Below, piece after piece: positions 7,894 to 29,597 of a stretch of DNA of 64,000 nt (its first letter is position 1; every line of letters begins with the position of its first letter). The stretch lies in assembly GCA_964512835.1 (NCBI GenBank), contig CAZELA010000002.1, forward strand, positions 105,037 through 169,036, in the 5' to 3' direction. The notes beneath the pieces are model-generated. The model made no database searches and was not told the origin of the DNA. It was given only the letters and a program-made list of their open reading frames with translations. A program made the position numbers and the translations under genes. This DNA comes from an uncultured Candidatus Saccharibacteria bacterium (lineage in GTDB: Bacteria > Patescibacteriota > Minisyncoccia > Phycocordibacterales > UBA2100).

Positions 7894-10800
7894 ATGAGGC
7901 TCTCTCACCTCAACGTGCGCAGAAATCGCGTCGCAGCGGCTCTTTTTGCTGCGGCGATTGTTGCGTATGCGCTCTATACGACCGGGCATTATGTGACCGC
8001 ATATCGTGAGACGAAAAGTGCACACGTTTTTCCGACAACGGCGACCGCAACAGGGTGGGATACTCCCGAGGCGGCACTCTCACAGGAGCTCGGGGCGAAT
8101 GCGCCGTTTGAATCGTTCGACACGACGAACTCCGCGCATCTTTCGATTGCGGGTAATACGCCGGTCGTCGAGACGCCGAACATTCCGCCGTCTGCACCGG
8201 ATAGCACTGAACAGCAACCGGTCGAGAACGCAACTACCACTCCCGAGGCTGCACCGTCAGGATCAGAAGCGCCGACGGCTGAGCCCGAGCAGGTACCGCC
8301 TGCGGTGGTCCCGGAGCAGACACCGAGCGCGCCGGTAGAGACGCCGTCAGCAGTTCCGGCAGAAACTCCTGCGGCAACTCCTGCAGAAACACCGACGACA
8401 CCCGCGACCGAAGCGCCCCCGGTCGAAACAAGCGTCTCCAAAATCTTTCACACAATCACGTCTTCACTGGTGAAGACTGCATATGCAACCACGACCGAAA
8501 GCGCGCTTCCGGACGACACGGCCGGCGGCGGGGCAGAAACATCGTCAATGACGGAAGACGTCCCGACATGTTTTTTGCAGCAAAAAGAGTGTCACACGAT
8601 TCAGCTCGACGGCTTCACTGTTTCTGGAGAAATCACCGAGACAAATTTTGAAAAGGCGAACCTGAACTTTTCGTTCGCCGCCGGAATCGGCGAGACGGAG
8701 CTCGTCGACGACAAGCTCGAAGTCCGCTACTACCATGCGGGTAAATGGCGCGAAGTGGGCGAGATTTTCCTCAACAAGCAGCTCTCCAACGCATCCAACG
8801 GCGGCTACTTCACTGCAACACTCGACGACGTGGCGTCGTGGGAAGAAATGTCCGATATCAAAGTCGTTATCGAATACGATCGCAATAACGATTCTGCGGT
8901 CGACCTGTATCTTGATGCGGTATGGATTGATGCGCAGTATCGGGAGCTGTTGTCGGATGTTGTTACCGACGAAGACGACATCCCTGAGTTGCCGGAGAAT
9001 GTGGTTCTGGAGTTGAACGAAGGCGGTGCGGTCGGCGAGCTTGTACTTTCTGACGGCACGCATGTTTCGTTCCCGTATACAGACGACCTTACTGATTCAC
9101 TGGTCATCCGAGCGGACAAGGTTACATACAGCCGCGCCGGAGATGTCGTATATGCGAGTCTCACGAACACGAGTGGCGTTGCTGATTCAGTGCGTTTGTA
9201 TACCGCATTTCCGCGCGGTTTCGGGTCGGTTGTAGATATTTCCGAACTGAAAAAGAATGTTCCGACCACAACGGAAACACCGCAGTACCAGGAGGTTACC
9301 TATCTGTGCGATGCGGGATGGAAATCGCTCGAGGTGAACGCAACGTCGACGGACACCGTTGCGTCCTCCTCACCGGCCGCATCGTATCGATGTGACGCTA
9401 CCGACGAAGAGCGAGTGTGTTCGGTACTCAACGACGATAAGACGAACTGCTCTGTTGACCGGGTGCAAGTCGGTTCGGAAAGCTCCGTCACGTACTCAAG
9501 TGGTTGGGTGCCGCTCATTTCAATCGACGGACAGACCGACCAGGACTCGCTGTCGGAATTTCTACCGCCGCTGTACCGCGTACTCTCAAAAACGACTGAA
9601 ACAATCGACATTCTTCCGGGGCAGACGGTGTATGTTCGCTTGCGACTTGAGTCAAACGAAACGGATGCGCTTCAGTTCACTCTTCTTGCGCAGGGTGCGG
9701 CGATTTCCGGAGACCTGCAGAGCGAGCTCTTGAAGAGCGAGCGTGAACTGAAAGGCGGCGAACCGCTTGCTAAGAAAAAGGGCAACTCGCGCATGTTCGG
9801 TCGTGCGGAGTTCGACGGCGATGAATTACCGGCATTCAAGTTCCAGTTCAAGTCAAAGCGCAACTTCGTATCACGCGGCCTCAATGTGCTGTTGGGTCGG
9901 GGAAACGAGTTCGGCGTTTCCGGCGTGACATTCTTGCGCGAAGACGGAACAGAGGTCACGCTCCCGGTTTCGGTTGAATACGGCGAGGACGGTCAGTGGA
10001 CGCTTGAGATCAAAACGCATCCGCGCGAATTCCGACCGGGTAAATATATGGCGGACATCGTCATGCACGAAGGCACCGACGAATTCACGGAGCGCGTTGA
10101 ATTCTATTGGGGAGTGCTCGCGATGAATATCAATCAGTCTTCGTATCGACCGGGGGAGACGGTACCGATCGCTTTGGCTGCACTTGATGACATGGGCGAC
10201 ACAATCTGCGATGCCGACATTCGACTCACGGTTACGGACCCCACCGGCACATCGACGCCGGTGTCCGTCGAACAGTCCGGGCTTTGCGGCGACAATAACA
10301 TCATCGATGTTGCAGACTATCTTGCCGTCTACACCACGTCGCTCCCCGGCTCGTACACCGCCGTTGCCACCGAATACGATGATCGCGGCCTCATCGTGCA
10401 TCGCGTGTACGATACCTTCGAGGTGCGCGCAGAAGTCCTGTTCACGATCCGTCGAGCGGGCATGACCCGTATTTATCCGGTCGCGGCATACACGATGGAT
10501 CTGGAACTGACATCGAGCGCCGACTTTGCGGGCGAATTCGTGGAATCCGTTCCGGTCGACTTCGATGTCCTCACGAGTGACGGTGCGGAGATCCGCATGT
10601 ACGGCGGTGCAAAAAATCTCGTGTGGCCCGTTGACTTGAAAGCGGGGGAGACGATGAAGGTTTCGTACACGTATGACGCGCCGGACATTTCGCCGTATAT
10701 GTACTTGCTCGGTCCTGCACAGGTACAGGGCGCGTCGGGGTTGCCGTTCGAGGAACCTCGCCAGTGGAAGATTGCATCCGACGCAACCGGGAACATGCTC

Positions 10801-13800
10801 TTGTACTGGGACAGTACGTATATTCCGACAGGGTGGACGTGCGTATCCTGCTTGCCTGCAGATTCGTTCTACCAGCGCTTCGTCATGGGTTCATCCACCG
10901 CCGGCACAAACGGCGGCGCAGCAACGACCGCTCACACTGCAACGGGCGCGGTTACAGCGTCTGCATCGTCACAGACGGTGGGAGCGAACAATCGGGCAAC
11001 TCCGGTCGTGGCGCACACGCACTCGTTTACGCCCGTCATCACTGCGACGAGTACGTTACCTGCGTACCGACAACTTGCGATCATCCAATCCAATACCGCA
11101 GGCGAGCCGTCTTCGATCCCGACCGGAGCGATTGCAATGTTCGATGCCGCAGTACCGAGCGGATGGACCGCGTACACTGCCCAGAACGGACGATACATTC
11201 GAGGTGAGAGCACTTCGACCGCGGGCACGACCGGCGGCAGCAACACGCACAAGCACGATGTTTCCGGAACGACCGGTGCGGCCGTTACTACCGTGAATGC
11301 GCAAAACCCGGGAACTACGATAGCCGTCGCCGCTGCTGCACATACGCACACGCTAACCGCAACAACGACGGGAAGCGTGAGCAACGAACCGCCGTATATT
11401 GAAGTCATTCTCGGTAAGTTGAATGCGACGTCGTCGCCGACGAATCAGATGATCGCAATGTGGAGCGGGGACCCGCCGACCGGATGGACAACGACATCGA
11501 GTTCCTCTGAGGCGATGGCGAACAAGTTCATAAAGGCGTCCACGACATACGGCGGAACAGGCGGCGCATTTACGCACAGTCACATCGATATGACCAACGT
11601 GCCGACCGGCGGTCCGAGCGGAACCGTCAACCGAAATAATGCCGCCGGTACAAACGTTGCGACTGCAGCACATACGCACAATGTGAACATAACGTCGTTC
11701 TCCACCGACTCACATCTGCCCCCGTATCGAACGGCAATCTTTGCAAAGCGAGTGGGCGGTGCCGCACCGAGTGGGCCGACTTTGTACGACGTATTATTTG
11801 CGAACGAACGAACGGGAACTTCGACACCGGCCTTTGAATTCAGTGCGACAGACCCGGACGGCGCTGACACGATCATCTATGAATTCCAATGGGACGACGA
11901 CAGCGACCTCGATACGTCACCGATCGGTGACAGAACGTCGGATGTCGAAACGGGATGCTCGCCGAACTGCTTCCAAAACCTGACAACGCCGATCAATACG
12001 TCACCGTTCACCGAGGGAAATCGTATCCGGTTCACGGTCCAGACACCGCTCGTCTCCGGTACCACATACTACTGGCGTGTACGTGCGCGCGAGAGCGGCG
12101 GTGGCGGCACGTGGGGCACGTGGGCAACAACGACGAGCTTCACCTATCTCGCTGGAACCGACCCGTCCCAGTGGTTCCAGACCACAGACGTCCAGTTTGA
12201 TTCAAACACAATGAGCGGGGCAGAAACGTTCGGGTCGGATGCCGCCCGGCTTGCGATATCGCCCTCGCAGGAAGCGCTTGTTGTCTACGGCGAGGGTACG
12301 GTACAGACGCCGCGATATCGTATATGGAACGGTACCTCGTGGAGCGCGGAAAGTTCCGCAAATTCCGTCGGCGGCGTCATTCAGTGGGTTGTAACCAAAG
12401 CCGCACCGACGAGGGATGAATATGTAAGCGGTACACAAGACAACGTCAACGACGTGAATGTGCAGATATTCAACGGGACCACCGATACGTGGGGATCGGT
12501 CACGGAAATGACGACGGGTGTCGCGAATAATGCCCGACGCGGCTTTGACCTGACTTACGAGTCACAGTCGGGCGACATTATGTCGGTGTACTGCGACGGC
12601 GATGCCGACCCCTCGTATCGTGTCTGGAACGGCTCGTCGTGGAGTGCGCCTCAGACGGTAAACATTACGAGCGCGAACAACTGCGAATGGATCTCGCTTG
12701 CCTCCGACCCGACGTCCGACGAGATCATCCTCGTAGAGCGCGATACGGGCGCGGGTTACGAAGCGCAGGTCTGGGACGGAAGCGCGTGGGGTAATGCCAA
12801 GACGCTCGGCTCCATGACCGATACCGCCCATGAAGGTATCGCAGTTAAATACGAAGAATCGGGTGATCAGGCGATGGTTGTCACCTCGAACGGAAACACA
12901 AGCGGTTTCGTGTGGACGACATGGAGCGGTACCTCGTGGGGTATCACGCAGACGCAGGGTCTCGGCGACGACTTTGAGTGGGGCAGACTTCGTGCGGACG
13001 ACGGATCCGACAAGCTCTCGCTCTGTTACATCGACGAAGACGCAGACGTCGGTACGCTCGTTTGGGACGGTAACGCATGGGATGCATTCACGACCGCGTT
13101 GGATGAACGCGACACGATCGGTAATGCTAAGACAGATCGCGCCGTAGACTGTGCGTACGAAACGACGACAGGACGCGACGGCTACGTTATGTTGCCGTAC
13201 TCCGACACGGCTGCGGCGCAGTACCAGTACTGGAACGGCACATCGTGGACCGCGAAGGCGGCGATCAGCACCATTCAGGACTCGTGGACCGTAAACGCCG
13301 TACGCACATCCGCAGGCGGCGTGCTCGCGTTTTTCCACGACGATGTCAATTCCCGCTATGACTTCTCCGACTGGAACGGAATTTCGTGGTCGACTGCAAC
13401 GACGCTTGAGACGGTGCCGTCCGCCACGACAACGCCGTTCTATCAGCCGATCGATATGGTCGCGCAGGTGTACGAATCGTCGTCGGGCACCATGACCGGC
13501 GGAACGATCGACTTCGACCAGGTACCGGGACGACAGACATGGGGCGAGATCTTGTGGCACACCACCGAGCCGTCGGGTACCGACGTGAAATTACAGGTCT
13601 TGTATGACAGCGGTAGCGGCTGCAGTACGCTCGTGCCGGATGTTGCACTCAATGCAAACCCGGGTCTCAACAGTATCGGCTATGACGCCACGACCTCGCC
13701 GATTAACATCTCCGGGCTCTCAACGTCGACATACAACCGCATTTGTGTTCGTGCGACGTTTACGACAACCAATACAAGTGCGCCGCAGCTTGATGACTGG

Positions 13801-16800
13801 TCGGTCACGTGGGAGCGACAGCCCTACCTGACGCAAACGCATTTCCGCTGGTATGCAAACGCGGCGACCTCGCTCACACCGTCGGACGCGTGGCCGTCGG
13901 GCGGTACCGATCTTGCGGAGGATGCAGCGGTTCCGACCATTTACTCACCGTCACCGGGTGATGTATTGCGTCTACGGATGAGTCTCTTGGAAGAGAACGT
14001 GTCGCTTTCGGCAGGGGATCTCTCGGTAAAACTGCAGTACGCGGAGGGGGCAACGTGCAGTGCCTCGCTTACGTGGCAGGATGTCGGCGCCATAGGATCG
14101 ACCACCGCAAAATGGCGCGGGTATGATAACGCTTCGCTTTCCGACGGAGCAACGCTCGCGTCTACGTTGCTCGCCGGGAGCGATACACGCGCGACCTACG
14201 AAGAAGCAAATGATTCGGCGGTAAACCCGTTCTCGGTTTCAGTCGGCAACGAACTTGAATATGACTGGGTGATTCAGCACAACGCGACCGGCAACACGAA
14301 CTATTGTTTCCGGGCGGTCACATCAACCGGCGTGACACTGAACGAATACGACCTGTATCCGAGTCTTGTCACCGACTCGCCGCCGGATGCACCGACGCTT
14401 GAGTCGCCGTTCAATAACGAATCACTCGCATCTACCACCCCGTGGTTCCAATTCGTCTCCGAAGATCCGGAGAACGATGATGTTACGTACCAGGTGCAGA
14501 TCGATGATGCGTCGGACTTCAGCTCCGTGAATATTGACCGCGATTCACAGAACAATTTTGCGGAATTCCAGAACCTGGTTACGCCGTCGGACAAGGACCC
14601 CTTCACGCCATCAAACTCTACGCGGTTCATACCGTCGTCATCGCTGTCGAACAATACGACCTACTACTGGCGCGTGCGCGCGAAAGACCGAACGAAGTCC
14701 GCCGAATGGAGCGCGTGGTCCGGAACGCAGAGCTTTACGGTCGACACGAGCGTCACCATTTCCACGTGGAAACAGACGACGCTCTATCAGTTCTCTACAG
14801 ACGATCACGAAGATACCGAGGCAACATCGACCGATTCAGTCGTTATCTCGAGCGGCTTCACGGTCGGTACGACCTCGAGTTCACTCATTGACTTCGATTG
14901 GCATACGACCGGAAACGCGTGGGGCTCCTTCAGTTTCAAACACTCCACGACCTCGAGCTCGATCCGATATCACATTGAATATTTCGACACCGACGTGTGG
15001 TCCCTCGTTCCGGATGCGGACTTGCCGGGAAATTCGACGGGCTTCGTCGGGACTACATCGCTCCTTTCAATGAGTCCGACGATCTATAACCAGATACGAA
15101 TCCGGGCCGACATGACGAACAGTGGTGCGTCGCCGCGACTCGATGACTGGACCATCGCCTGGGGCTATGCAGTTGAACAGCCGGCAATAACCACGTTGTT
15201 CGACAACGAAAAGACCGCTACAACAACGCCGTCATTCACATTCAAATCCGGCGATCCGCAGAGCGATGATCTGGTGTACGAAGTTTCCATATCGACGACG
15301 CAGGCATTTACGTCGTCTACGACGCGGCGCTCGAGTCTGAACACGGGCTTTTCGAACACGGCGTCATCGACCGACACAAGCCCGTTCACGCAGAACAATC
15401 TGATCAACTTTACGCTACAAGCCGCAGATGCGCTTACCAACGGTACGACCTACTGGTGGAAGGTTCGCGCAATCGATCCGACCGGCGGCAACGTGTGGTC
15501 TGTGTGGTCGGACCTGCGAAGCTTTACCGTCGATACGTCGGTTGCCGTATCAACGTGGTTCCAGACGACAGATGAACAGTTCCAGTCCGATACGCTCGAC
15601 AATATCGAAACGAGCGGCGGAAAGGCGCAGATTACCTCTACGATCAAGGAGGCATTCATGGTGTACTCCGAAGGTACTGTGCAGGTGCCGCGCTTCCGAT
15701 TGTGGAACGGTACCGTATGGGGAACCGAGCTCTCCGGTGTATCGGTGGGTGACACGATCCGTTTCGAGGAAGCGGCAGCAGCTCCGACGCGCGACGAATA
15801 CATCATCATGACCGAGGGCTCGACCGGCGTTGTCGATGCACAGGTCGTTGACGGCGCAACTGATACCGCCGGCAATATCGCGCGTATCAACACGGCCGTT
15901 TCGGATCCGACGCAGCGCGGATTCGATGTTGCGTACGAAACATCGTCGGGCGATGCGCTCGCGGTTGCGTGTTTCGGCACCGAAGCGACCTATCGCGTGT
16001 GGAACGGGTCGTCGTGGACGGCGACTTCGACGATCAATCTTGCGGTATCCACCAACTGCGAATGGGTCAAGCTGGTGTCAGATCCGACCTCCGACGAGAT
16101 CATCATGGTGGTGCGAGACTCGACGACTGGTGCAGTCGACTATGAGGCGCTTGTCTGGAACGGTTCTGCATGGGGAAATTCCATGACGATGGGTTCACAG
16201 GTTACCGTCGCAAACGAGGGTATCGCGGTAGAGTACGAAGAAAGCGGCGGTCAGGCGATTGTGGCGGTCTCGAACGGGGCAAACAACAACTTTATATGGA
16301 ATTCCTGGAACGGTTCCGCGTGGGCCGGTACTGCGACTGTGGCGATCGGAAACGACTTTGAAGGCGGTCGTATTGTGCGCGATGTGGGAACCGATCGAAT
16401 GACTATGTGTTACATCGATGCAGATTCCGACATCGGCTATGCAACCTGGGGCGGTTCCGCGTGGACCGGATCCACCGAAGTTGAAACACTTGGTAACAGT
16501 GTGAACGATCGACCGGTTTCATGCGAATACGAAACCGCAGGATCGCGCGACGGCTACACCATGATGGTGCACTCGGACACCACACAGGCGGAATATGAAT
16601 ATTGGAACGGCAGTGCCACGACCGCGCCTGCGGTCATCAACACGGTAACCGACTCCGCCGAAGTGCGTACGGCACGAACAGGAGACGGGTTGATTATGGC
16701 GTTCTTCTACGACGACGCAAACACTGAATACGACGTCACATACTGGAACGGAACGACGTGGTCGACCGAACAGCAGATCGAGCCGACCTCGATCACGACC

Positions 16801-19800: not shown

Positions 19801-22800
19801 ATCACGACGGGATTCAACGTGACCGAAACGGGTACACCAAGTTCGTACTGGTGGTTCCGCAATCACTACGGCAATTACGCCGGCGAGAGTTTTGATTCGG
19901 ATCCGGGGCCGAATAGCGGTAATCCCGGTTATGTACGATGGGACGACTCGGGCTTTACGATCTCTGTTTCGGGAAATGTGTACTCGGACGAAGGCAGTAC
20001 CGCGATCGGTTCACCGGCCTGCGACGGCGTCACCGCGAACGTGCGCATTGTGGTGAACTTCGGATCGTTCGCGTCGTCGACCCCGTGCAATGCCTCGACG
20101 GGTGCGTACACAATTTCCGGCATTACCTTCAGCGGCGACGCGGTCCTCACGACGTATTTGAATACGAACGGCGGCGCACGCGCAGTAACGGTTACGCGAA
20201 CGGCAACCGCGAACGTGACCGGTCTCGATCTCTACCAAAACGAAGTCATCGTGCGACACGAGGACGTTGCTCCGCTTACGATCGCGAACATGGCGGTGTA
20301 CGACTCGGGTGATGACAGCGATATCCCGTTCACTGCGGCAACAGGCACACCCGACACACTCACGGTCTCGCCCGGCAATGAATTGCATGTCTGGACCGGT
20401 AAGACATTCGTGCCGGGAGGCAACATGTCGCTGACCAGCGGGGGAGCGAACGGCTCGAAGGATGGTCGGCTCCACATTGCGACCTCGTCTGTATTCACCG
20501 CAACGGGCGCAGAATCACACTCGATCGGCGGCGGACTTGCGATCCAATCAGGGGCAACATTTACGACCGCAAGCTCGACGTTTACGTTCACGGCGACCAC
20601 GACGAACAAGTCGATCTATGCGGTCGCTCCGATATCGTTCTGGAACACGACATTCAACGGTTCCGGCGGCTCATGGTCGTTTGATAACGGATTCTCGACG
20701 ACGACCGTGCTCAATACCATGACGTTCACTGCGGGAACGCTGACCGGCACGGGAGACCTAACGCTCACGCAGGGCACGCTTACGGGATCAGGCACCGTGA
20801 ACATGACGGGCGGCACCATTACACTCCACGGTACCGGTGTGTTCGGTAACAACAATAACTGGCAGTTCTCGACGCTCTCGCTCGGTAACGGCACAAACGC
20901 AGGGTCGTCGGTGAAAACAGGAACCGGCACAACGACCGTTACCGGTGTGCTCCGCATCAATACATTGCAGCGACTGTATGCCGCAACGTCGTCGTGGGTC
21001 TTGTCGGGATCGGGAACACCGTTTGCGGTTGCCTCCGGTGCAACGTTTACCGCGCAAGTGGCGCCGTTCACATTCTCGGGAACCGGCGCAACGACGGTCG
21101 CGGATCAGGCATATGCGGCGCTCTTGCTCACACCGAGCGCAGCGGGTACTCCTACATACACGCTCCGTGGCGGTACATTGTCGGCAACCTCACTCGCCGT
21201 AGGCAGTACGAATCCTGTGGCCGTCGACGTAAATACGAATGACCCGTCACTTTCGATTTCGGGCACGGTGACGATCGGATCCGGCAGTACACTTATTGCA
21301 TCGAATGTCGGCGCGCTCGATGTAGGCGGTAGCTGGTCGAACCTTGGAACATTCACTTCCTCCGCGGGCACGGTTAACTTCAACTCGTCAGATACAGGCG
21401 AGACGATTGATCCGGGTCAGTCGAGCTTTGCGACACTTTCATTCAACGGTGTCGGCGGTGGGTGGACGATACTTCAGAATGCTACATCCACGGGCGACAC
21501 GTTGCTGGTAAATGCCTCGGCATTTACGCTATCTCCGAACAAGACCCTTGCAGTGGGCGGCACCTTCACGAACTCAGTCGGCGGGTCGGCGACCACGTGG
21601 GCAACATCGACCCTCTCGCTCTATTCGGGCACAAGCTACTCTATTAATACAAAGTCGGCGGGGAATGATCTGTACGGTACGCTCCTGATCGGTGCAAACA
21701 CCGATGTGCGCATGTGGAATTCGAGTGCGGCCACTACTACGGTGAACTCGACCGGCTCGCTCTACTCGCAGGATCACGCGGCGGTCGACGGAAGTCTTTA
21801 TATCTGGGGCGAATATGTACGGTCGACCGGCAGCGACTATTGGAGCTATCTGACCGACTTCGACGGCACATCGCTTGCCACCTCGACGCCGCGTGGCGTA
21901 TCGGTCCTGATCGCAACATCGAGCTCGATCACGCTCTCCGGCGGCTCACTCGATATTACAGGTACAACAACAGCGACTACCACAGTTCAAAATCAGGGAA
22001 CGGGCCGCTACGCGTTTACTGTTTCCGGCGGTACGTTCAATGCGCAGTACTACCAGATCCGAAACACTGACCTCAACGGCCTTTCGTTCACCGGTTCACC
22101 GACCATTACCACGCTGTCCGACGGTGATCTGCAGCTCGGTGTAAACGGGGGTAGCACGATCACGGTTGCAGGAACGGTGATCGATGCGAATCCGCTGAAG
22201 ATCTTCCAGCGCAATAATTTCTCGACCACGACCGCGAGCGGTATTACGAGCGGCTTTAACGTGAAGGCGACGGGATCTTCCGGCTCTTCGTGGAAGTTCA
22301 ACCTGCACTACGGCGCATTCGGCGGCGAAGCGTACGATTCCGATCCGGACGGCGACCCGGGGTACCTGCGATGGGATGACAGCGCAAGTTCGATCTCTGT
22401 TTCGGGCAATGTGTACTCCGACGAAGGTTCGACGGTCTCCGGTGCATGTAACGGCTCCACGCAGGTGGTGCGCCTCAAGGTGCAGGGTGCCGGTACGTAT
22501 ACATCGTCGTGCAGCTCTGCAACGGGCGCATACTCGATCTCGGGAGTCGCGTTCAACCCGGGCGACACGCTGACCGTCTTCTTGGACAACGCGACGGGCA
22601 CGCGCCGTGCGGCAAACGTATCGATCGATCCGATCAGTTCGATATCGAACATGCACCTGTACGAAAATCGCGTAATCGTTCGTCACGAAGATACAAGCGC
22701 GATCACTATCGCAAAAATGGCGCAGTACGATGCCGACCAGGATAGTGACATTCCGTTCAATGCGACCGATGCGGCGACCGATACGCTCGTTGCGACCGGC

Positions 22801-25800
22801 ACAAAACTTATCGTATTTACCGGAAAAACATTCACGCCGGGCGGCAACATTACGCTGATCGGGGGCGCTGCAAATGCCTATGACGCAACGCTCGAGGTTG
22901 CAACGAGCTCAAGCCTGATCGCTGCAAATAATCAGTACTACTCGATCGGCGGGTCGCTGATCATCGGTAGCAGTGCGACGTTCACATCTGCCAGCTCGAC
23001 GGTCACCATGACCGCGACGACGACCGGTAAGACAATCACGCTCAATAATTCGACGCTCTACAATATCGTGTTCAGCGGAACCGGCGGCAACTGGGCATTC
23101 AGCGGCTCAACCATGACTGCGCTCGGCGACTTCCTCGTTACCGCCGGTACCGTTAACCTGCCGACCGCAACGTCAACGGTCGCGGGCTCGTTCCTCAATT
23201 CAGGCGGCACACTGCAGCACAACAACGGAACGCTCTACCTTACCGCGACCTCAACCGGCAAGGTGGTGCGACTGAATAATTCAAATCTCTACAATATCGA
23301 ATTCAACGGCACCGGCGGTGCATGGTCCTTTGCCGATGCGTCCGCCACGTCGTCGAACAATGTCACGATAACCGCCGGCACCGTGACCGCACCTACGACC
23401 ATGCTTACGGTCGGCGGATCATTCCAGAATTTCGGCACGTACACCGCAGGCGTCGGCACAACGAAGTTCACAGCGAACGCGACGGGTAAGTCGATCCGAT
23501 TCGGAGGTTCTGCGCTCTACAACATTCTCGTTGACGGCGTCGGCGGCGGCTGGACCATTACGGATACGAGCGCGACGGCGACACGCGACTTCACGATCCT
23601 GCACGGTACGACAACGCTACCGACGGGCACGTTCACGGTCGGCGGTTCCTGGACCACGACGGGCGCCGGCTTTACCGCGGCAACGACGAGTACGGTGCTC
23701 TTCAACGCGACCACGACCGGGAAGACCATCGATCCGGGCATCTCGACGTTCGGCGGCGTTACATTCAATAGTTCGGCCGGCGGCTGGACGGTATCACAGA
23801 GCGCGACGTCGACAGGTGACACAACGATCACTGCCGCGACAAGCTTTACGCTCTCGCCGAATAAGACGCTTGCGGTCGGGGGCACGTTCACGAACTCAGT
23901 CGGCGGCGCAGCGACCACCTGGGCGACCTCGACGCTCTATCTGTACTCGGGCACGAATTACTCTATTAATACAAAGTCGGCAGGGAACGATGTGTACGGG
24001 ACGCTCTTCGTGGGAGCAAACACCGATGTGCGTATGTGGAAGTCGACCGCCGCGACCACGACCGTTACCTCGACCGGTTCGCTGTACTCGCAGGACAATG
24101 CCGCAATCAACGGTACGGCTGTGGCGGGCAATTTGTACATCTGGGGAGAGTATGTTCGATCGTCAGGCAACGACTATTGGAGTTATGCGACCGACTTCGA
24201 CGGAGCGGCGCTCGGCGGCTCGTCGCGTATCGCAAACGTACGTATTGCAACGTCGAGCTCGGTTACGATTTCGGGTGGCTCGCTCGAAATAATCGGCGCT
24301 GCAGGTGCCACGACCACAATTCAAAACCAGGGTACAGGCAGCTATGCATTCACGGTTTCCGGCGGCACGTTCAACGCAACCCGCTACCAGATCCGTAATA
24401 CCGACGTGAACGGGCTCAACTTCACCGGTACGCCGGCGATCACGTCGCTCGATCTCGGTGACTTCCAGCTTGGAGTGAACGGCGGCAGCATGATATCGGT
24501 CAGCGGCGCAGCCATCGATGCCAACGCGTCGAAGCAGATCAGTTATGTGCAGTTCGCCACGTCAACCGGCATCGCATCCGGCTACAACGTGTCGCTCACG
24601 AGTTCATCGACTGCTGCATGGACGTTCCTGTCGCACTACGGAAACTATGCCGGTGAATCCTATGACTACGACGGAGCGGATACGTGCGGCAAGATTCGCT
24701 GGAGCGACAGCTCGTGTCTCTTTGTGAACCAGGGTCACTACCGATGGCGAAACGATGACGGCGGCGTCGGCGCTCCGACGACGGAATGGTACAACGCGTC
24801 ATGGTCGAAGCGACAGAAGGTTGTCGTCTCGAACTCGACGGCGTCCGTGCTCACGAATCAGGCGGTGCAGATCGTCGTGCCGTACGACGCAGACATGCAG
24901 AGCGACTTCGACGACCTACGGTTTACGGACTCGACCGGTACGACGTCGATCTCTTACTGGATCGAAAACACGAACGCATCGGCCTCATCGACGGTGTGGG
25001 TGAAGCTCCCGTCCGTTCCGGCAAACGGATCATCGGTCATCTATATGTATTACGGTAACTCCGGCGCGTCGGACGCAAGTAACGGCACAAACACGTTTAA
25101 GACGTTCGAAGATTTTGAATCGGGATCCGTGTCGGGTTATTCAGGCGACACGTCGCTCTTCAGCGTCGGTACTACATACCACCACACGCACACCTACGGG
25201 CTCGACGCCGGAACGAACTTCAATGACTTTACGACAAGCGGGTTGTATAAGACCGGCTCGCTGAGCGCGCAGGGCGATACGATCCACTTCTATCAGTATG
25301 TGGATGACTCGCGTGACGACGAGCCGTGTACGCTCTTCGGCGTGGGCGGTTCGGCAAATAACTATGCGGTATGTCTCGATCACTATCCGGTGGAGAGGAT
25401 TTCCATCGCAAAGAACGTAACGAGAAACGACGAAAGCGGTACGGTGCTCGCATCGACCACAGTCTCGTATTCGACCGGCTGGTACGACGTACGGGTGGAT
25501 TGGCTCACCAACAACTCTATTAATGTGACCGTATTGAATGACGACGGATCGGCATTTGCCACACTGAATACGACCGATTCAAGTCACACGAGCGGTGGGT
25601 ACGGGTTCTCGTACTGGGCGATGAAGGGCGGGTGGGACTTCTTCTCGGTTCGACCGTACGTATCGGCGACGCCGACGTATGTATTTGGTACCGAACAAAT
25701 TAGCGACGGCGCATCGTGGCTTGCCGCCGAGGACACCGTCACGTCCGGTATATCAACAGGACAGAATGTGCGCGTGCGATTCACGGTACAGAACACGGGG

Positions 25801-27003
25801 GCACCGCTCTCGAGTAAGCAGTTCAAATTGCAGTTCGCCGCCAAGAACGCATTGAACTGCGAATCAACGACCGGATTCAGTGATGTTCCGACGCAAAGCG
25901 GCGGCAGCTGCACCGGCAACGCTGCGTGTATGGCACCGTCGTCGCAGTTCGTTGATCAGACCTCGATCTCTGACCTCTTGTCTCGCCCGGCGAGCATGAC
26001 CTTTACGCAGGGCAAGATCGTCGAGGATACGTCGGCAACGACGAATGCGATCAATGTCGGCACGAACGAGGCAACGGAAGTCGAATTCAACTTCCAGCTC
26101 ACGACGAACGCCGTTGCCAATTCGTACTGTTTCCGCACCGCTCGAACCGATACGGGTGCACTCGACAGCTACGACCATGTGGCAGAGATCGGCCTCACGT
26201 TCCCGCCGACGATCTCGAATTTCAACTTCCCGCTCATCTACTACGCAACCAGTTCCGGTATCGCGCTGACAGAAGGTACGACCACGCTTGTATACGCAAC
26301 GGGAACGGTGACCGACTTCAACGGGTATGCCGATATCGTGCTCGCCTCGTCAACGATCTACCGATCCGGCGTCGGCTCGACATGTTCGGCGAATGACAAC
26401 AACTGCTACAAGGTTCCTTCGTGTGCACTCTCGCTCTGCTCCGGCAATTCGTGCACCATCACGTGCTCCGCAAATGTGCAGTATTTTGCAGAGCCGACCG
26501 ATGCACAAAGCCCCTCGTACAGTGCAGAAAGCTGGCTCGCGAGCGTGCGCATCCAGGATGCCGCAGGACTCTCGGCGACCGCGACGACGAGCGCGGAAAT
26601 GGGTACTATGCGAGGACTCTCCGTGAATACATCGATCGCATACGATGACGACACGATACCGGGTATGGATCCGGGTGCGAACACCGGTTCCCGCCTTGCT
26701 ACTACAACGGTCACAAACACCGGCAATTCGCCGATCGATATCCGTCTGTCCGGCGAAAATGTAGGCTCAATCCCGGTGAACAGTCAGAAGTATTCGACGA
26801 GCACGTTTACGTACGCCTCGTGCTCGGTCTGTGCGTTGCTCTCCGGCCCGTCGACTCCTGTCGGTGCAGGGCTTAATATCCCGAAAGCTACGGCCTCGAC
26901 GACGCCGACGACAAGCGACGTGTACTGGGGTATCTCGATCCCGATTCCCACCGCAACAGGGCTCCAGCAGGGAACTAACTACTTTGAAGCGGGAGCTCCG
27001 TGA
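7894..27003 (+). CDS. Giant (6369 aa) N-terminally anchored, multi-domain repeat-rich cell-surface protein (adhesin-like)
   Basis: One uninterrupted 19,110-nt ORF. It starts with an N-terminal signal-anchor (VAAALFAAAIVAYALY) and a Pro/Thr/Ala/Glu-rich linker. Next come three HxH...LPPY tail-collar-like repeats (about 10.9-11.8 kb) and FN3-like modules ending in TTYYWRVRA. Two copies follow of a region of about 570 aa with WNG[ST]SW blades. A long array of Thr/Gly/Ser beta-helix-like units of about 55 aa sits inside three near-identical 2.3-2.4-kb tandem repeats. The C-terminal region has a motif set (HYRWRNDDG..., LRFTD..G, VWVKLP, YMYYGN) that resembles DUF2341 (from memory), then a LamG/concanavalin-like region. 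The tail carries SWLASVRIQD....VYWGISIP, shared with the ORF at 32239..34140. Confidence 0.85.
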   Translation: MRLSHLNVRRNRVAAALFAAAIVAYALYTTGHYVTAYRETKSAHVFPTTATATGWDTPEAALSQELGANAPFESFDTTNSAHLSIAGNTPVVETPNIPPSAPDSTEQQPVENATTTPEAAPSGSEAPTAEPEQVPPAVVPEQTPSAPVETPSAVPAETPAATPAETPTTPATEAPPVETSVSKIFHTITSSLVKTAYATTTESALPDDTAGGGAETSSMTEDVPTCFLQQKECHTIQLDGFTVSGEITETNFEKANLNFSFAAGIGETELVDDKLEVRYYHAGKWREVGEIFLNKQLSNASNGGYFTATLDDVASWEEMSDIKVVIEYDRNNDSAVDLYLDAVWIDAQYRELLSDVVTDEDDIPELPENVVLELNEGGAVGELVLSDGTHVSFPYTDDLTDSLVIRADKVTYSRAGDVVYASLTNTSGVADSVRLYTAFPRGFGSVVDISELKKNVPTTTETPQYQEVTYLCDAGWKSLEVNATSTDTVASSSPAASYRCDATDEERVCSVLNDDKTNCSVDRVQVGSESSVTYSSGWVPLISIDGQTDQDSLSEFLPPLYRVLSKTTETIDILPGQTVYVRLRLESNETDALQFTLLAQGAAISGDLQSELLKSERELKGGEPLAKKKGNSRMFGRAEFDGDELPAFKFQFKSKRNFVSRGLNVLLGRGNEFGVSGVTFLREDGTEVTLPVSVEYGEDGQWTLEIKTHPREFRPGKYMADIVMHEGTDEFTERVEFYWGVLAMNINQSSYRPGETVPIALAALDDMGDTICDADIRLTVTDPTGTSTPVSVEQSGLCGDNNIIDVADYLAVYTTSLPGSYTAVATEYDDRGLIVHRVYDTFEVRAEVLFTIRRAGMTRIYPVAAYTMDLELTSSADFAGEFVESVPVDFDVLTSDGAEIRMYGGAKNLVWPVDLKAGETMKVSYTYDAPDISPYMYLLGPAQVQGASGLPFEEPRQWKIASDATGNMLLYWDSTYIPTGWTCVSCLPADSFYQRFVMGSSTAGTNGGAATTAHTATGAVTASASSQTVGANNRATPVVAHTHSFTPVITATSTLPAYRQLAIIQSNTAGEPSSIPTGAIAMFDAAVPSGWTAYTAQNGRYIRGESTSTAGTTGGSNTHKHDVSGTTGAAVTTVNAQNPGTTIAVAAAAHTHTLTATTTGSVSNEPPYIEVILGKLNATSSPTNQMIAMWSGDPPTGWTTTSSSSEAMANKFIKASTTYGGTGGAFTHSHIDMTNVPTGGPSGTVNRNNAAGTNVATAAHTHNVNITSFSTDSHLPPYRTAIFAKRVGGAAPSGPTLYDVLFANERTGTSTPAFEFSATDPDGADTIIYEFQWDDDSDLDTSPIGDRTSDVETGCSPNCFQNLTTPINTSPFTEGNRIRFTVQTPLVSGTTYYWRVRARESGGGGTWGTWATTTSFTYLAGTDPSQWFQTTDVQFDSNTMSGAETFGSDAARLAISPSQEALVVYGEGTVQTPRYRIWNGTSWSAESSANSVGGVIQWVVTKAAPTRDEYVSGTQDNVNDVNVQIFNGTTDTWGSVTEMTTGVANNARRGFDLTYESQSGDIMSVYCDGDADPSYRVWNGSSWSAPQTVNITSANNCEWISLASDPTSDEIILVERDTGAGYEAQVWDGSAWGNAKTLGSMTDTAHEGIAVKYEESGDQAMVVTSNGNTSGFVWTTWSGTSWGITQTQGLGDDFEWGRLRADDGSDKLSLCYIDEDADVGTLVWDGNAWDAFTTALDERDTIGNAKTDRAVDCAYETTTGRDGYVMLPYSDTAAAQYQYWNGTSWTAKAAISTIQDSWTVNAVRTSAGGVLAFFHDDVNSRYDFSDWNGISWSTATTLETVPSATTTPFYQPIDMVAQVYESSSGTMTGGTIDFDQVPGRQTWGEILWHTTEPSGTDVKLQVLYDSGSGCSTLVPDVALNANPGLNSIGYDATTSPINISGLSTSTYNRICVRATFTTTNTSAPQLDDWSVTWERQPYLTQTHFRWYANAATSLTPSDAWPSGGTDLAEDAAVPTIYSPSPGDVLRLRMSLLEENVSLSAGDLSVKLQYAEGATCSASLTWQDVGAIGSTTAKWRGYDNASLSDGATLASTLLAGSDTRATYEEANDSAVNPFSVSVGNELEYDWVIQHNATGNTNYCFRAVTSTGVTLNEYDLYPSLVTDSPPDAPTLESPFNNESLASTTPWFQFVSEDPENDDVTYQVQIDDASDFSSVNIDRDSQNNFAEFQNLVTPSDKDPFTPSNSTRFIPSSSLSNNTTYYWRVRAKDRTKSAEWSAWSGTQSFTVDTSVTISTWKQTTLYQFSTDDHEDTEATSTDSVVISSGFTVGTTSSSLIDFDWHTTGNAWGSFSFKHSTTSSSIRYHIEYFDTDVWSLVPDADLPGNSTGFVGTTSLLSMSPTIYNQIRIRADMTNSGASPRLDDWTIAWGYAVEQPAITTLFDNEKTATTTPSFTFKSGDPQSDDLVYEVSISTTQAFTSSTTRRSSLNTGFSNTASSTDTSPFTQNNLINFTLQAADALTNGTTYWWKVRAIDPTGGNVWSVWSDLRSFTVDTSVAVSTWFQTTDEQFQSDTLDNIETSGGKAQITSTIKEAFMVYSEGTVQVPRFRLWNGTVWGTELSGVSVGDTIRFEEAAAAPTRDEYIIMTEGSTGVVDAQVVDGATDTAGNIARINTAVSDPTQRGFDVAYETSSGDALAVACFGTEATYRVWNGSSWTATSTINLAVSTNCEWVKLVSDPTSDEIIMVVRDSTTGAVDYEALVWNGSAWGNSMTMGSQVTVANEGIAVEYEESGGQAIVAVSNGANNNFIWNSWNGSAWAGTATVAIGNDFEGGRIVRDVGTDRMTMCYIDADSDIGYATWGGSAWTGSTEVETLGNSVNDRPVSCEYETAGSRDGYTMMVHSDTTQAEYEYWNGSATTAPAVINTVTDSAEVRTARTGDGLIMAFFYDDANTEYDVTYWNGTTWSTEQQIEPTSITTVAPPTIPLDIVARRYPAFVAGSITSTAINFSDGTGPKWGAISFSKTTPGASTVKLQVEYFTSTSSWALIPDSVIPGNSVGTTTTLDMSNVNRITYSTIRMKANLACVAGNCPTLNDWTLTWAQGINVQGTVQQYDQSTNVTSGTVAVAVNGVKQTGKTATITGSGTFSIANVTVFQDDIVTVFVDGAGDASEAVAITKYDGNGDITGLNLYERHLSLGSDDNQTITNNNISQFDMSVAADDDIFYDVDAGNDLTATSTGTVWDVELWVKAGTTYRPDSASSGFATVYGLENNGTITMDGNTMTLLGSWDNNAVFNKDASTVIFAATSSTRTIDSTGASLSTFNHVTFGTASTAATWTLTTPLDVDGNLTLNFGTLSPATTAITIGGNLSIGASGTFTKGTATTTFDGSSSATWTDSTAAKQDMGSVAIDGTTKTVQLGSAVKATNITIGSDDTLNVTAGNYGIEVTGNWTNNNSFVAQSGTVTFSSTAVGKTIVPGSSSFYNITFNGIGGNWAFSQAVTAGNDFTIATGTVTLPSSTTTITGSFLVTGGAFQPNNGAVVFNSSATGKTVNPNTSPFYDLTFSGTGSWSFGVTNATSSRHVIITQGAVTMPSGTLAIGGSFRKTGGSFAHNNGILRFTASNAQTVQWSGSDAYQTYFSGTAGSWSFLDASATSTNNVRFEAGTSTLPSGTFAVGGSWIATNGGFTHNSGTVKFTATSTAKTISTGTSIFSSMWFDGVGGGWTLSGSTTAAGAFTLSNATAFTMSPNFTLAVGGAFTNAVGGSATTWATSTLSLYSGTNYSINTKTTGGDVYGTLSLGANTNIRSWNSTAATTTVASTASVYSQDNSTIGGTPVDGDLYIYGAFTSSANEYWSYATDFDGTALGVSSRQVNVRIATSSTIAYNTGTLQILGTSTATTTIQNQGTGRYAFAISGGTLQAQYYSVKNGDVNGFSISGSTAISSLADGDFELGVNGGTALKVTSTVIDANSALQIQRVRFATSTGITTGFNVTETGTPSSYWWFRNHYGNYAGESFDSDPGPNSGNPGYVRWDDSGFTISVSGNVYSDEGSTAIGSPACDGVTANVRIVVNFGSFASSTPCNASTGAYTISGITFSGDAVLTTYLNTNGGARAVTVTRTATANVTGLDLYQNEVIVRHEDVAPLTIANMAVYDSGDDSDIPFTAATGTPDTLTVSPGNELHVWTGKTFVPGGNMSLTSGGANGSKDGRLHIATSSVFTATGAESHSIGGGLAIQSGATFTTASSTFTFTATTTNKSIYAVAPISFWNTTFNGSGGSWSFDNGFSTTTVLNTMTFTAGTLTGTGDLTLTQGTLTGSGTVNMTGGTITLHGTGVFGNNNNWQFSTLSLGNGTNAGSSVKTGTGTTTVTGVLRINTLQRLYAATSSWVLSGSGTPFAVASGATFTAQVAPFTFSGTGATTVADQAYAALLLTPSAAGTPTYTLRGGTLSATSLAVGSTNPVAVDVNTNDPSLSISGTVTIGSGSTLIASNVGALDVGGSWSNLGTFTSSAGTVNFNSSDTGETIDPGQSSFATLSFNGVGGGWTILQNATSTGDTLLVNASAFTLSPNKTLAVGGTFTNSVGGSATTWATSTLSLYSGTSYSINTKSAGNDLYGTLLIGANTDVRMWNSSAATTTVNSTGSLYSQDHAAVDGSLYIWGEYVRSTGSDYWSYLTDFDGTSLATSTPRGVSVLIATSSSITLSGGSLDITGTTTATTTVQNQGTGRYAFTVSGGTFNAQYYQIRNTDLNGLSFTGSPTITTLSDGDLQLGVNGGSTITVAGTVIDANPLKIFQRNNFSTTTASGITSGFNVKATGSSGSSWKFNLHYGAFGGEAYDSDPDGDPGYLRWDDSASSISVSGNVYSDEGSTVSGACNGSTQVVRLKVQGAGTYTSSCSSATGAYSISGVAFNPGDTLTVFLDNATGTRRAANVSIDPISSISNMHLYENRVIVRHEDTSAITIAKMAQYDADQDSDIPFNATDAATDTLVATGTKLIVFTGKTFTPGGNITLIGGAANAYDATLEVATSSSLIAANNQYYSIGGSLIIGSSATFTSASSTVTMTATTTGKTITLNNSTLYNIVFSGTGGNWAFSGSTMTALGDFLVTAGTVNLPTATSTVAGSFLNSGGTLQHNNGTLYLTATSTGKVVRLNNSNLYNIEFNGTGGAWSFADASATSSNNVTITAGTVTAPTTMLTVGGSFQNFGTYTAGVGTTKFTANATGKSIRFGGSALYNILVDGVGGGWTITDTSATATRDFTILHGTTTLPTGTFTVGGSWTTTGAGFTAATTSTVLFNATTTGKTIDPGISTFGGVTFNSSAGGWTVSQSATSTGDTTITAATSFTLSPNKTLAVGGTFTNSVGGAATTWATSTLYLYSGTNYSINTKSAGNDVYGTLFVGANTDVRMWKSTAATTTVTSTGSLYSQDNAAINGTAVAGNLYIWGEYVRSSGNDYWSYATDFDGAALGGSSRIANVRIATSSSVTISGGSLEIIGAAGATTTIQNQGTGSYAFTVSGGTFNATRYQIRNTDVNGLNFTGTPAITSLDLGDFQLGVNGGSMISVSGAAIDANASKQISYVQFATSTGIASGYNVSLTSSSTAAWTFLSHYGNYAGESYDYDGADTCGKIRWSDSSCLFVNQGHYRWRNDDGGVGAPTTEWYNASWSKRQKVVVSNSTASVLTNQAVQIVVPYDADMQSDFDDLRFTDSTGTTSISYWIENTNASASSTVWVKLPSVPANGSSVIYMYYGNSGASDASNGTNTFKTFEDFESGSVSGYSGDTSLFSVGTTYHHTHTYGLDAGTNFNDFTTSGLYKTGSLSAQGDTIHFYQYVDDSRDDEPCTLFGVGGSANNYAVCLDHYPVERISIAKNVTRNDESGTVLASTTVSYSTGWYDVRVDWLTNNSINVTVLNDDGSAFATLNTTDSSHTSGGYGFSYWAMKGGWDFFSVRPYVSATPTYVFGTEQISDGASWLAAEDTVTSGISTGQNVRVRFTVQNTGAPLSSKQFKLQFAAKNALNCESTTGFSDVPTQSGGSCTGNAACMAPSSQFVDQTSISDLLSRPASMTFTQGKIVEDTSATTNAINVGTNEATEVEFNFQLTTNAVANSYCFRTARTDTGALDSYDHVAEIGLTFPPTISNFNFPLIYYATSSGIALTEGTTTLVYATGTVTDFNGYADIVLASSTIYRSGVGSTCSANDNNCYKVPSCALSLCSGNSCTITCSANVQYFAEPTDAQSPSYSAESWLASVRIQDAAGLSATATTSAEMGTMRGLSVNTSIAYDDDTIPGMDPGANTGSRLATTTVTNTGNSPIDIRLSGENVGSIPVNSQKYSTSTFTYASCSVCALLSGPSTPVGAGLNIPKATASTTPTTSDVYWGISIPIPTATGLQQGTNYFEAGAP
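12160..13880. repeat. Intragenic duplicated module, copy 1 (about 570 aa, repeated WNG[ST]SW blades, beta-propeller-like)
   Basis: The protein segment from TDPSQWFQTTDVQFDSN to WNGISWSTATT has 8 or more W-N-G-[ST]-[SAT]-W motifs spaced about 55-75 aa apart. Copy 2 is at 15550..17160 with the same blade order. Confidence 0.6.
15550..17160. repeat. Intragenic duplicated module, copy 2 (paralogous to 12160..13880)
   Basis: VSTWFQTTDEQFQSD....RFRLWNGTVWGTE...RVWNGSSWTAT...LVWNGSAWGNS...IWNSWNGSAWAG...TWGGSAWTGS...YWNGTTWSTE is collinear with copy 1 at the protein level. The nucleotide sequences have diverged. Confidence 0.6.
18900..24720. repeat. Three near-identical tandem long repeats (units about 2.45 kb, 2.32 kb, then a truncated third) inside the giant gene
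   Basis: The anchor string ctattaatacaaag recurs at 19196, 21641 and 23963 (spacings 2445 and 2322 nt). Each copy has long flanking runs of near-identical nucleotides (e.g. WATSTLSLYSGT.YSINTK...YWSY.TDFDGT...RIATSS...IQNQGTG.YAF..SGGT..AQYY...N.D.NG). Identity is high enough to be recombinogenic. Confidence 0.75.
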
Positions 27004-27704
27004 TGATTGCCATGACCACACAACGTTCACATACCCGTTCACCGAAAAAGCGCACCACCATGATCGTCAGCGCAGTCATTTTGTTGTGCGTGGCCGGTTT
27101 TGCGTACATCAATTTCAGCGCATCGCGATTCGAGAAGTCGTTTGGAGCGTACGACGCAGCTGAACGTGCCTACGAGGAATCCGCCTTCAAACCCGGCGCG
27201 GAGGAAAATCCGGTGCGCCAGCAGGTTAACCAGTTACTTGCACAGGTGCTGCAGGTGGACATGTCGCAGGAGGCGCGTATAGACATGGCGCGGCAGGGTA
27301 TCGCGCACCTTGATGATATTGAAGATCAGATCGATGATGTGAAGGAAAAAGGGGATGTTGTCGCGCCGCTTCTTGCCTCCGTTGAAAAAGGCGCACGCTC
27401 ACCGGGTAATGCGGCAAAGCGATCGGATCTGATGGAGATCGTGAAGCTCGGTAAGCGCCAGACCGAGATTATTGCTGATATTCGCGGTCTTTCGTACCGG
27501 GCCGACTACTACACGACCGAGATCTTTGAACGGGTGATTGACGACCAGGGTCTGATAACCGACGACCATAAGACCTACCTCAACGGCCAGATCCCGCAGC
27601 TCGAAGAGCAATTCAATAAGCGTTCAAATCTGTATAGGGAGCTGGCCGACAACCGTTCAAAACTCAACGAACTTGCCGTAAAGCTCGGGTACACGAGCCA
27701 ATAG
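27003..27704 (+). CDS. Membrane-anchored helical protein (hypothetical). Its start overlaps the giant-gene stop.
   Basis: The GTG at 27000 or ATG at 27003 overlaps the TGA at 27001..27003 (translational coupling). It has a basic N-terminus, one TM (MIVSAVILLCVAGFAYINF) and then a charged, largely helical domain of about 190 aa. No known motif. Confidence 0.5.
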   Translation: MIAMTTQRSHTRSPKKRTTMIVSAVILLCVAGFAYINFSASRFEKSFGAYDAAERAYEESAFKPGAEENPVRQQVNQLLAQVLQVDMSQEARIDMARQGIAHLDDIEDQIDDVKEKGDVVAPLLASVEKGARSPGNAAKRSDLMEIVKLGKRQTEIIADIRGLSYRADYYTTEIFERVIDDQGLITDDHKTYLNGQIPQLEEQFNKRSNLYRELADNRSKLNELAVKLGYTSQ

Positions 27705-28081: not shown

Positions 28082-28126
28082 TTTTTCCCGAGACTGCGAA
28101 CGTTGAACGAAACACGGGTGTTACAC

Positions 28127-28154: not shown

Positions 28155-28156
28155 AT

Positions 28157-29596: not shown

Positions 29597-29597
29597 T

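Follow-up and report, generated by a model that had tools for sequence, protein, structure and literature searches.

The 64,000-nucleotide stretch of DNA analyzed here (positions 105,037 to 169,036 of contig CAZELA010000002.1, GenBank assembly GCA_964512835.1, from an uncultured “Candidatus Saccharibacteria” bacterium), referred to below as the window, carries on its forward strand an intact, single uninterrupted open reading frame (ORF) that encodes a protein of 6369 amino acid residues (aa) at positions 7894 to 27003. This giant protein is a member of a widespread family of long surface proteins of Patescibacteria (the candidate phyla radiation, or CPR), in which its domain architecture is conserved rather than exceptional. 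It includes a module of three tandem repeats with histidine pairs (His-x-His, HxH) whose homology to three-repeat phage tail proteins is demonstrable and extends over the entire module. With a probability of about 0.7, the giant is an N-terminally membrane-anchored, modular cell surface fiber of a Patescibacteria bacterium of the Paceibacteria/Parcubacteria type, in which the HxH module is a metal-stabilized node and the ligands are bound distally.

The three-repeat HxH module and its family

The HxH module occupies approximately residues 967 to 1290 of the giant (positions 10792 to 11763, forward strand) and consists of three repeats of ∼110 aa, encoded at approximately positions 10792 to 11097, 11098 to 11427, and 11428 to 11763. 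Each repeat combines a PxGW motif, a GG..HxH motif, a second HxH, and an [LE]P[PA]Y motif; in the first repeat, the first HxH is degenerate (Thr-Ala-His). The PxGW motif is found once per repeat, at residues 978, 1088, and 1195, and the [LE]P[PA]Y motif at residues 1055, 1165, and 1275, both with a spacing of ∼110 aa, and neither of the two is found anywhere else in the protein. A single 340-aa span holds five of the giant's six HxH motifs; in 2000 shuffled sequences, the best window contained on average 0.42 such motifs, and a count of 5 was never reached. The repeats also recognize each other in self-comparison, with E values from 1.6e-6 to 7e-11. The three histidine-pair repeats, described previously in a first-pass annotation that was made from the sequence alone, are therefore not a product of chance. 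In the AlphaFold2 model of the module (predicted template-modeling score [pTM] of 0.76; predicted local distance difference test [pLDDT] score above 95 in the core), the structure is all-beta, and the same six-strand pattern appears in each repeat. The HxH motifs occupy equivalent places in the three repeats, with the second pair at residues 1041/1043, 1150/1152, and 1260/1262.

A homology search with the module retrieved 46 proteins of 344 to 621 aa in which the three repeats are also present and are covered by no Pfam domain. The exhaustive profile search yielded 3523 cluster representatives at E ≤ 1e-3, 598 of them at E ≤ 1e-30, including proteins of up to 6807 aa and some with two copies of the module. 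Given that it comprises more than 3500 clusters and has neither a Pfam nor an NCBIfam model, this is a large, uncurated domain family. Conservation was measured on 193 near-full-length instances of the module. The twelve His positions are conserved in 85 to 99% of these and belong to the most conserved positions; depending on the repeat, an intact second HxH is found in 95 to 98% of the instances and an intact first one in 76 to 91%. All six HxH motifs are present in 106 instances, and 31 display the same pattern as the giant, with the first motif degenerate. The Trp residue of the PxGW motif is 92 to 98% conserved in the family.

A 557-aa protein encoded on a 4275-bp NCBI contig (P0002) has HxH repeats 2 and 3 joined directly to a homolog of the Cys-rich and terminal domains from the C terminus of the giant; this domain order shows that these modules recombine in different combinations. 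Short stand-alone members of the family were seen in two kinds of genomic context (L087/P0011 and L086/P0021), one resembling a phage, where three HNH nucleases and numerous small ORFs on the same strand are found, and the other plainly cellular, adjoining the genes for FtsK, RecA, RecX, and glycosyltransferases.

Relationship to phage tail proteins

A scan of viral contigs revealed eleven loci encoding relatives of the module, most of them proteins of 396 to 441 aa with three repeats. The hidden Markov model (HMM) of the cellular family matched all eleven viral proteins, with scores of 47 to 102 bits, as well as the Pas28 and Pas29 proteins of the Actinoplanes phage phiAsp2 (76 and 60 bits, respectively). 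When the cellular and viral families were aligned with hhalign, the alignment covered 310 of 317 columns, with a probability of 99.85% and an E value of 9.9e-31. In the two viral loci that were examined (L071 and L074), the gene for the tail protein adjoins tape-measure, minor-tail, and tail-fiber genes, and its product matches the PHROG entry “tail protein” with an E value of 3e-25 as well as the entries “tail fiber protein” and “tail collar fiber protein.” The same relationship was seen at the structural level: in a Foldseek search of the BFVD, the module model matched Pas29 (E value of 5.9e-16, TM score of 0.54) and Pas28 (E value of 1.6e-15, TM score of 0.55), in both cases with a probability of 1.00 and with the TM score normalized to the query, and also a “Phage tail collar domain containing protein” at an E value of 7e-3. 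The GenBank entry for Pas29, whose gene is located directly after that of the putative major tail protein, reads [quoted passage not shown]

Similarly to the module of the giant, these phage proteins (IMG/VR proteins that match PHROG 5795, 8469, and 1800; phiAsp2 Pas28 and Pas29) contain three tandem repeats in one chain, with PxGW at the repeat start, several HxH motifs, and an E/N-P-P/E-Y strand at the end. However, they are 415 to 1291 aa long and are encoded within tail-gene modules, whereas the module of the giant lies inside a membrane-anchored protein of 6369 aa that is encoded in a cellular operon. In addition, the phage versions retain a Collar-type CDG..GTPDLR segment and more HxH motifs, whereas the C-D-G...(L/T)-P-D-(L/M)-R pattern is absent from the repeats of the giant.

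A more remote relationship probably connects the module with the Collar motif and with homotrimeric fiber tips such as those of Pa223 gp60 and T4 gp37. The profile search of the PDB with the module gave a single match, the homotrimeric tail fiber of Pseudomonas phage Pa223 (PDB entry 9nxk; E value of 0.0027), in which the motifs follow in the same order (PxGW, GG, HxH, HxH, and PPF); a Foldseek search of the PDB with the module model produced no match. The fiber tip of Pa223 has been reported to resemble that of T4 gp37 (10.1101/2025.06.11.659172), where the HxH motifs bind iron (PMC11705849). Both the T4 gp37 tip (PDB entry 2xgf) and Pa223 gp60 are trimers of identical chains, in contrast to the three repeats in a single chain of the giant. 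With the metal sites in the tip of T4 gp37, the module shares the recurrent, conserved HxH motifs (five intact and one degenerate), although its own metal binding is only putative.

The first-pass annotation found the repeats reminiscent of the phage tail-collar or MdpB domain. Relatedness to phage tail proteins was confirmed by the hhalign, HMM, and Foldseek comparisons, but formal membership in the Collar family was not. The Pfam Collar profile (PF07484; curated threshold of 24 bits) had no match at E ≤ 10 to the module of the giant or to any of its repeats and none at E ≤ 1 among 32 members of the family, and no PHROG match was found at E ≤ 0.01 for the module of the giant and four cellular family members. 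Each repeat opens with a Collar-like G-x-I-x-x-F ... P-x-G-W hairpin, but the CDG...LPDLRGR part of the Collar domain is missing. Collar is also the sole Pfam family that touches the viral relatives: one of seven scores above the threshold, with the matches spanning only profile positions ∼1 to 24. The Pa223-type fiber scores 20 bits against this profile, below the cutoff.

Integrity and distribution of the giant ORF

The reading frame of the giant is preserved in independent assemblies. In the nearest relative, which is 95% identical in the HxH module (L014; contig CAZWFX010000005.1), the matching frame is open for at least 4632 aa. The module is located inside a long intact ORF in 44 of 53 species-representative genomes; in these 44, the ORF extends past the edge of the retrieved locus, typically more than 3333 aa downstream of the homologous region. 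Orthologous giants called at 5860 to 6342 aa and followed by the same downstream gene cluster are found in several independent assemblies, and a search for homologs with a 3061-aa query from the giant returned 7 proteins. Accordingly, the single giant gene proposed in the first-pass annotation is real, and its architecture, which had been regarded as unusual, turned out to be a conserved feature of the clade.

Nearly all genomes with relatives of the module are labeled as Patescibacteria, including Paceibacterota, Parcubacteria, Lloydbacteria, Kaiserbacteria, WWE3, and “Saccharibacteria.” The module was also seen, at 37 to 41% identity, in long ORFs from bins assigned to Methanocellales, Woesearchaeota, Actinobacteria, and Chloroflexi (L052, L053, L054, and L055), which points to a cross-domain spread or, possibly, to mis-binned contigs.

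Function of the module and alternative explanations

As a surface fiber, the giant would be exported by the Sec system and retained through its signal-anchor, and the Pro/Thr-rich linker and the Ig-like stalk would bring it across the envelope. The three HxH repeats could fold as a single-chain stand-in for a fiber trimer, with the near-invariant histidine pairs, two per repeat, converging on metal ions to form a rigid node. The FN3, jelly-roll, and propeller cassettes, the long rods of repeats, and, at the distal end, the DUF2341 and C-terminal domains would then provide the reach and the ligand binding to a host cell or a substrate, and the products of the conserved partner genes may help to assemble or hold the fiber. 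By analogy with the phage fibers, the HxH module is probably a rigid, metal-stabilized node whose three tandem repeats take the place of trimerization, and ligand binding is more likely to reside in the propeller cassettes or in the domains at the distal end than in the module.

Several observations weigh against this reading. The module (residues 956 to 1290 of 6369, counted from its junction with the stalk) lies in the anchor-proximal fifth of the giant, at 15 to 20% of the chain, and not at a distal tip. Among the 193 aligned instances, the losses of the first HxH are single and not concerted over the three repeats, which argues against a strict all-or-none six-His site at that position. 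Finally, with no direct Collar or PHROG match for the module of the giant, its link to phages depends on profile and structure comparison. However, the anchor-proximal position, taken together with the description of the phage-fiber HxH motifs as iron binding, favors the rigid metal-stabilized node over a part of the fiber that meets the ligand.

It is unlikely that the module itself is the host-recognition element, i.e., a phage-type receptor-binding device that picks the host of the episymbiont. Such a role would fit its phage relatives, which are tail or fiber proteins and include the possible receptor-recognizing Pas29, as well as the size and diversity of the family and the short anchored proteins in which the module is also the main extracellular domain. 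However, the anchor is N-terminal, so that the module is confined to the proximal part of the chain, its highest conservation is seen in the histidines and the PxGW/PPY framework and not in variable surface loops, and the authors of the Pa223 study doubt that their own highly conserved fiber is the primary receptor binder (10.1101/2025.06.11.659172). The “receptor-binding” label that the first-pass annotation gave to these motifs is therefore unproven and was an overstatement, given also that the phage HxH has been described as a metal-binding motif of the tip. Even less probable is that the giant is not an adhesin but an envelope- or pilus-associated structural part or a polysaccharide-acting enzyme scaffold, for example, with DUF2341 as part of a type IV pilus-like system or with lyase-like beta-helix rods. 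Its long periodic repeats, rich in Thr, Ser, Gly, and Asn, could indeed be beta-helices like those in glycan-degrading enzymes, and there are cohesin- and dockerin-like proteins among its neighbors. Nevertheless, no catalytic family in Pfam or NCBIfam matched anywhere in the giant, the conserved cluster contains no pilus genes, and the succession of an anchor, a linker, Ig/FN3 modules, rods, and distal domains is that of a fibrous adhesin. An origin of the ORF as an assembly artifact, a pseudogene, or a prophage or tailocin gene, which might be suspected because the gene is internally repetitive and contains a phage-related module, is effectively refuted. The DNA repeats inside the gene are only 65 to 83% identical to each other, which makes repeat collapse or misassembly unlikely, the frames are intact in the assemblies described above, and the G+C content is even along the region. 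The neighboring genes are cellular, encoding an S26 signal peptidase, HSP20, and an ABC transporter, which rules out a prophage, and no phage structural genes are found in the conserved cluster. The preferred reading of the giant thus remains that of an anchored surface fiber with the HxH module as its node.

Domain organization of the giant

The layout of the giant was derived from tiled self-comparison, Pfam searches, hydropathy, and composition; all the features described below are encoded on the forward strand. Pfam was scanned with ten 800-aa tiles and with the individual claimed segments at E ≤ 10, and only DUF2341, FN3-like, and weak MG2 matches were obtained; NCBIfam had no match to any tile. 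PDB sequence and profile searches with the N-terminal stalk, a propeller cassette, the repeat block, and the C-terminal region found nothing meaningful, the matches to the MS2 coat protein and SafD having been judged spurious looking and set aside. A PHROG search with the other parts of the giant gave no match.

The N-terminal signal-anchor (residues 13 to 31; positions 7930 to 7986) is preceded by an Arg-rich stretch and is the sole hydrophobic segment of the giant. It is followed by a linker (residues 85 to 200; positions 8146 to 8493) that consists of 19.8% Pro, 18.1% Thr, 15.5% Ala, and 11.2% Glu. Hydropathy and composition thus agree with the signal-anchor and the Pro/Thr/Ala linker of the first-pass annotation, with Glu as a further main component of the latter. 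The N-terminal stalk (residues 201 to 955; positions 8494 to 10758) contains a weak MG2-like Ig segment at residues ∼751 to 829, which scores 23 to 24 bits in Pfam, below the cutoff, and ends with the sequence RQWKIASDA, a junction that is kept in homologs P0096 to P0102. In the close homologs P0096 to P0099, the HxH module is found at this same junction; the distant giants P0100 to P0102 share the stalk and have other domains there.

Downstream of the HxH module, three FN3-like modules end with TTYYWRVRA or TTYWWKVRA at residues 1390, 2255, and 2518. The first of these (positions 11776 to 12123), which ends with TTYYWRVRA, was recognized by self-comparison and by subthreshold Pfam matches (18 to 19 bits); the second (positions 14419 to 14733) was recognized by Pfam, self-comparison, and the motif; and the third (positions 15196 to 15513) matched the Pfam family Ig_Rha78A_N above the cutoff. 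The score for that family was 38.2 bits, versus a cutoff of 27.4, in the tile containing modules 2 and 3, and remained subthreshold in the other tiles. The FN3-like modules are interspersed with two cassettes, located at residues 1427 to 1974 (positions 12172 to 13815) and 2555 to 3091 (positions 15556 to 17166), that are 43 to 52% identical to each other. The first cassette is a jelly-roll-like domain with a propeller-like insert of ∼415 aa, comprising 8 W-[ND]-G-x-x-W repeats ∼50 aa apart; the second one is another jelly-roll plus propeller-like copy, likewise with an insert of eight such repeats. For cassette 1, AlphaFold2 predicts an all-beta structure (pLDDT of 77.5, pTM of 0.74), with ∼30 strands in the insert (residues 35 to 431 of the model) followed by a beta-sandwich, which is consistent with an eight-bladed propeller. 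The jelly-roll-like domain is also present once without interruption, at residues 2292 to 2424 (positions 14767 to 15165), as detected by self-comparison, so the nesting of the ∼415-aa propeller-like region within a jelly-roll-like domain of ∼133 aa is a clear case of a domain within a domain. A further domain, at residues 2008 to 2173 (positions 13915 to 14412), is a paralog of residues 5945 to 6114, with 22% identity and an E value of 4.6e-5; in P0098 and P0099, its counterpart sits directly after the HxH module.

The second cassette is followed by a Thr/Ser/Gly/Asn-rich repeat block (residues ∼3113 to 5640; positions 17230 to 24813) with a 76-aa periodicity (z score of ∼4.6), which had no match in Pfam or the PDB. 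It is organized as three macro-copies, 52 to 72% identical, and contains three copies of a domain of ∼130 aa, starting at residues 3113, 4050, and 4847. Its fold is presumed to be a beta-helix. The block is followed by a DUF2341 domain (residues 5671 to 5745; positions 24904 to 25128), recognized by Pfam with an E value of 2.1e-25 and a score of 89 bits. The next region (residues 5746 to 5944; positions 25129 to 25725) is conserved in the orthologs and had no family match; altogether, ∼620 aa of conserved sequence after DUF2341 gave no match in these searches. The C-terminal domains (residues 5945 to 6369; positions 25726 to 27000) comprise the paralog of residues 2008 to 2173, a segment rich in Cys, and, last, a beta domain ending with YWGISIP...; this string precedes a G-x-Y-x-G strand and does not follow it.

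Most of the distal parts named in the first-pass annotation, namely, FN3-like modules ending with TTYYWRVRA, two copies of a multi-repeat W-N-G propeller-like region, a repeat block, and a DUF2341-like segment, were thus recovered, and two were not. For the region labeled LamG-like, there was no Pfam match to the LamG-type (Laminin_G_3) profile at E ≤ 10 in residues 5743 to 5949, and the profile of the orthologs found nothing relevant in the PDB. For the supposed WxL-like tail, the WxL profile had no match at E ≤ 10 in the tail of the giant or in ten diverged homologous tails.

Partner gene and gene neighborhood

The stop codon of the giant (TGA) overlaps the ATG at position 27003 (TGATG), the start of a gene for a 233-aa protein (positions 27003 to 27704, forward strand) with an N-terminal transmembrane segment at residues 16 to 41 and a hydrophilic, charged remainder. 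This protein has 49 homologs. In all eight genomic contexts that were examined, its gene is found directly 3′ of a giant, with gaps of 2 to 64 nt, and the identity of the partner proteins between contexts goes down to 34 to 38%. The seven upstream giants that were covered by the Pfam look-up were called at 1898 to 6342 aa and contain DUF2341; the eighth leaves its contig at 3521 aa. Because of this conserved synteny, the downstream membrane protein, suggested previously as a dedicated accessory factor from its translational coupling to the giant, is well supported as a dedicated partner.

The partner gene is followed by a same-strand cluster (positions 27731 to 38292, forward strand) that encodes a 116-aa protein with two transmembrane segments, a 479-aa FN3 protein, an ABC ATPase, a MacB/FtsX permease, a 649-aa protein, and four membrane-anchored proteins with DUF4215 and dockerin domains and with cohesin matches that are weak, or faint in the orthologs. 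In the orthologous contexts, the partner gene is likewise followed by the genes for a small protein, an FN3 protein, a 448-aa ABC ATPase, a MacB/FtsX permease, and anchored DUF4215/dockerin and cohesin-like proteins. This gene order shows that the giant heads a conserved operon of membrane and surface genes. Immediately beyond the final gene of this cluster, at position 38453, there is a terminator-like hairpin; no convincing same-strand terminator was found in the window before this position, and the regional terminator count was not above that in shuffled sequences.

The window contains a second giant ORF (positions 40407 to 51614, forward strand), of 3735 aa when counted from the listed TTG, with a signal peptide after an internal Met that ends with ...AFADTAHA. 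This ORF lacks the HxH module and matches the Pfam family Peptidase_G2 (“IMC autoproteolytic cleavage domain”) at ORF residues ∼2023 to 2100, with 30.8 bits versus a cutoff of 25. The Peptidase_G2 domain is typical of phage tail-spike and appendage proteins. Both giants are flanked by membrane-anchored proteins (positions 6061 to 7743, 35235 to 36371, 36374 to 37327, 37285 to 38292, 38293 to 39078 on the reverse strand, and 61333 to 63033), several of which have an N-terminal signal, a C-terminal transmembrane segment, and a basic tail. Several of them match Dockerin_1 (23.6 to 27.5 bits) and/or Cohesin (23.5 to 25.1 bits), with scores around the cutoffs, which suggests a cohesin-dockerin-type surface assembly. 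The ORFs at positions 56114 to 57430 and 58895 to 60019 match WxLIP_PGBD, the peptidoglycan-binding domain of WxL-interacting proteins, with 26.5 and 28.2 bits, respectively (cutoff, 27.3), a finding that is unexpected in a Patescibacteria genome. A 288-aa ORF at positions 60465 to 61331 contains an FGE-sulfatase (C-type-lectin-like) domain (55 bits), a fold that is often targeted by diversity-generating retroelements. Such an element was considered and rejected: there was no template/variable repeat pair in positions 56000 to 64000, and no reverse transcriptase was seen.

Comparison with other giant proteins and implications

The giant adhesins of the RTX/Bap type, such as LapA, SiiE, and MpIBP, are long modular fibers with repeated Ig/FN3-like extender domains, ligand-binding domains at one end, and an adjoining ABC transporter; they are exported C terminus first by type I secretion and are retained at the outer membrane. 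The giant described here resembles them in its length, modular extender domains, and ABC transporter neighbor but differs in having an N-terminal signal-anchor, no RTX repeats, and an ABC neighbor of the MacB/FtsX type, not one for type I secretion. Closer counterparts are the giant (>4000-aa) proteins of Patescibacteria with DUF2341 and/or FhaB segments, which have been described as likely adhesins with reshuffled domains (PMC11809585). They share with this giant the phylum, the size class, DUF2341, the shuffled modules, and the inferred role in adhesion or host interaction. However, no phage-fiber-like module was reported in those proteins and no full-length homologs of them were found, whereas this giant has many full-length orthologs and a conserved operon. 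With regard to the FhaB segments, the giant had no hemagglutinin-type match in Pfam. In a literature search of limited coverage, no published phage-fiber-type module was found in Patescibacteria giants.

It is tempting to extend these findings to a more general picture, in which a single-chain, three-repeat version of the trimeric HxH fiber element is common to phages and Patescibacteria (with sporadic occurrences in archaea, Actinobacteria, and Chloroflexi) and has been built into giant surface fibers, the episymbionts grip or recognize their hosts with phage-derived attachment hardware, and the module family is a general marker of CPR host attachment; this extension is, however, doubtful. 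Should the module prove to be only a structural knot, its description would be a useful annotation and little more.

Little is known about how ultrasmall episymbiotic bacteria locate their hosts and stay attached to them; in Saccharibacteria, surface proteins predicted to be adhesins have been reported as essential (PMC11665869). The present analysis adds a large, uncurated family of three-repeat HxH domains that is common to phage tail proteins and the giant surface fibers of Patescibacteria. It provides a concrete annotation, with twelve near-invariant histidines, for a conserved piece of ∼320 aa of the giant surface proteins in one large lineage of Patescibacteria. The module is small enough for expression, metal-content, and binding assays, and the conserved operon of the giant and its partner genes narrows the choice of targets for knockout or imaging studies.

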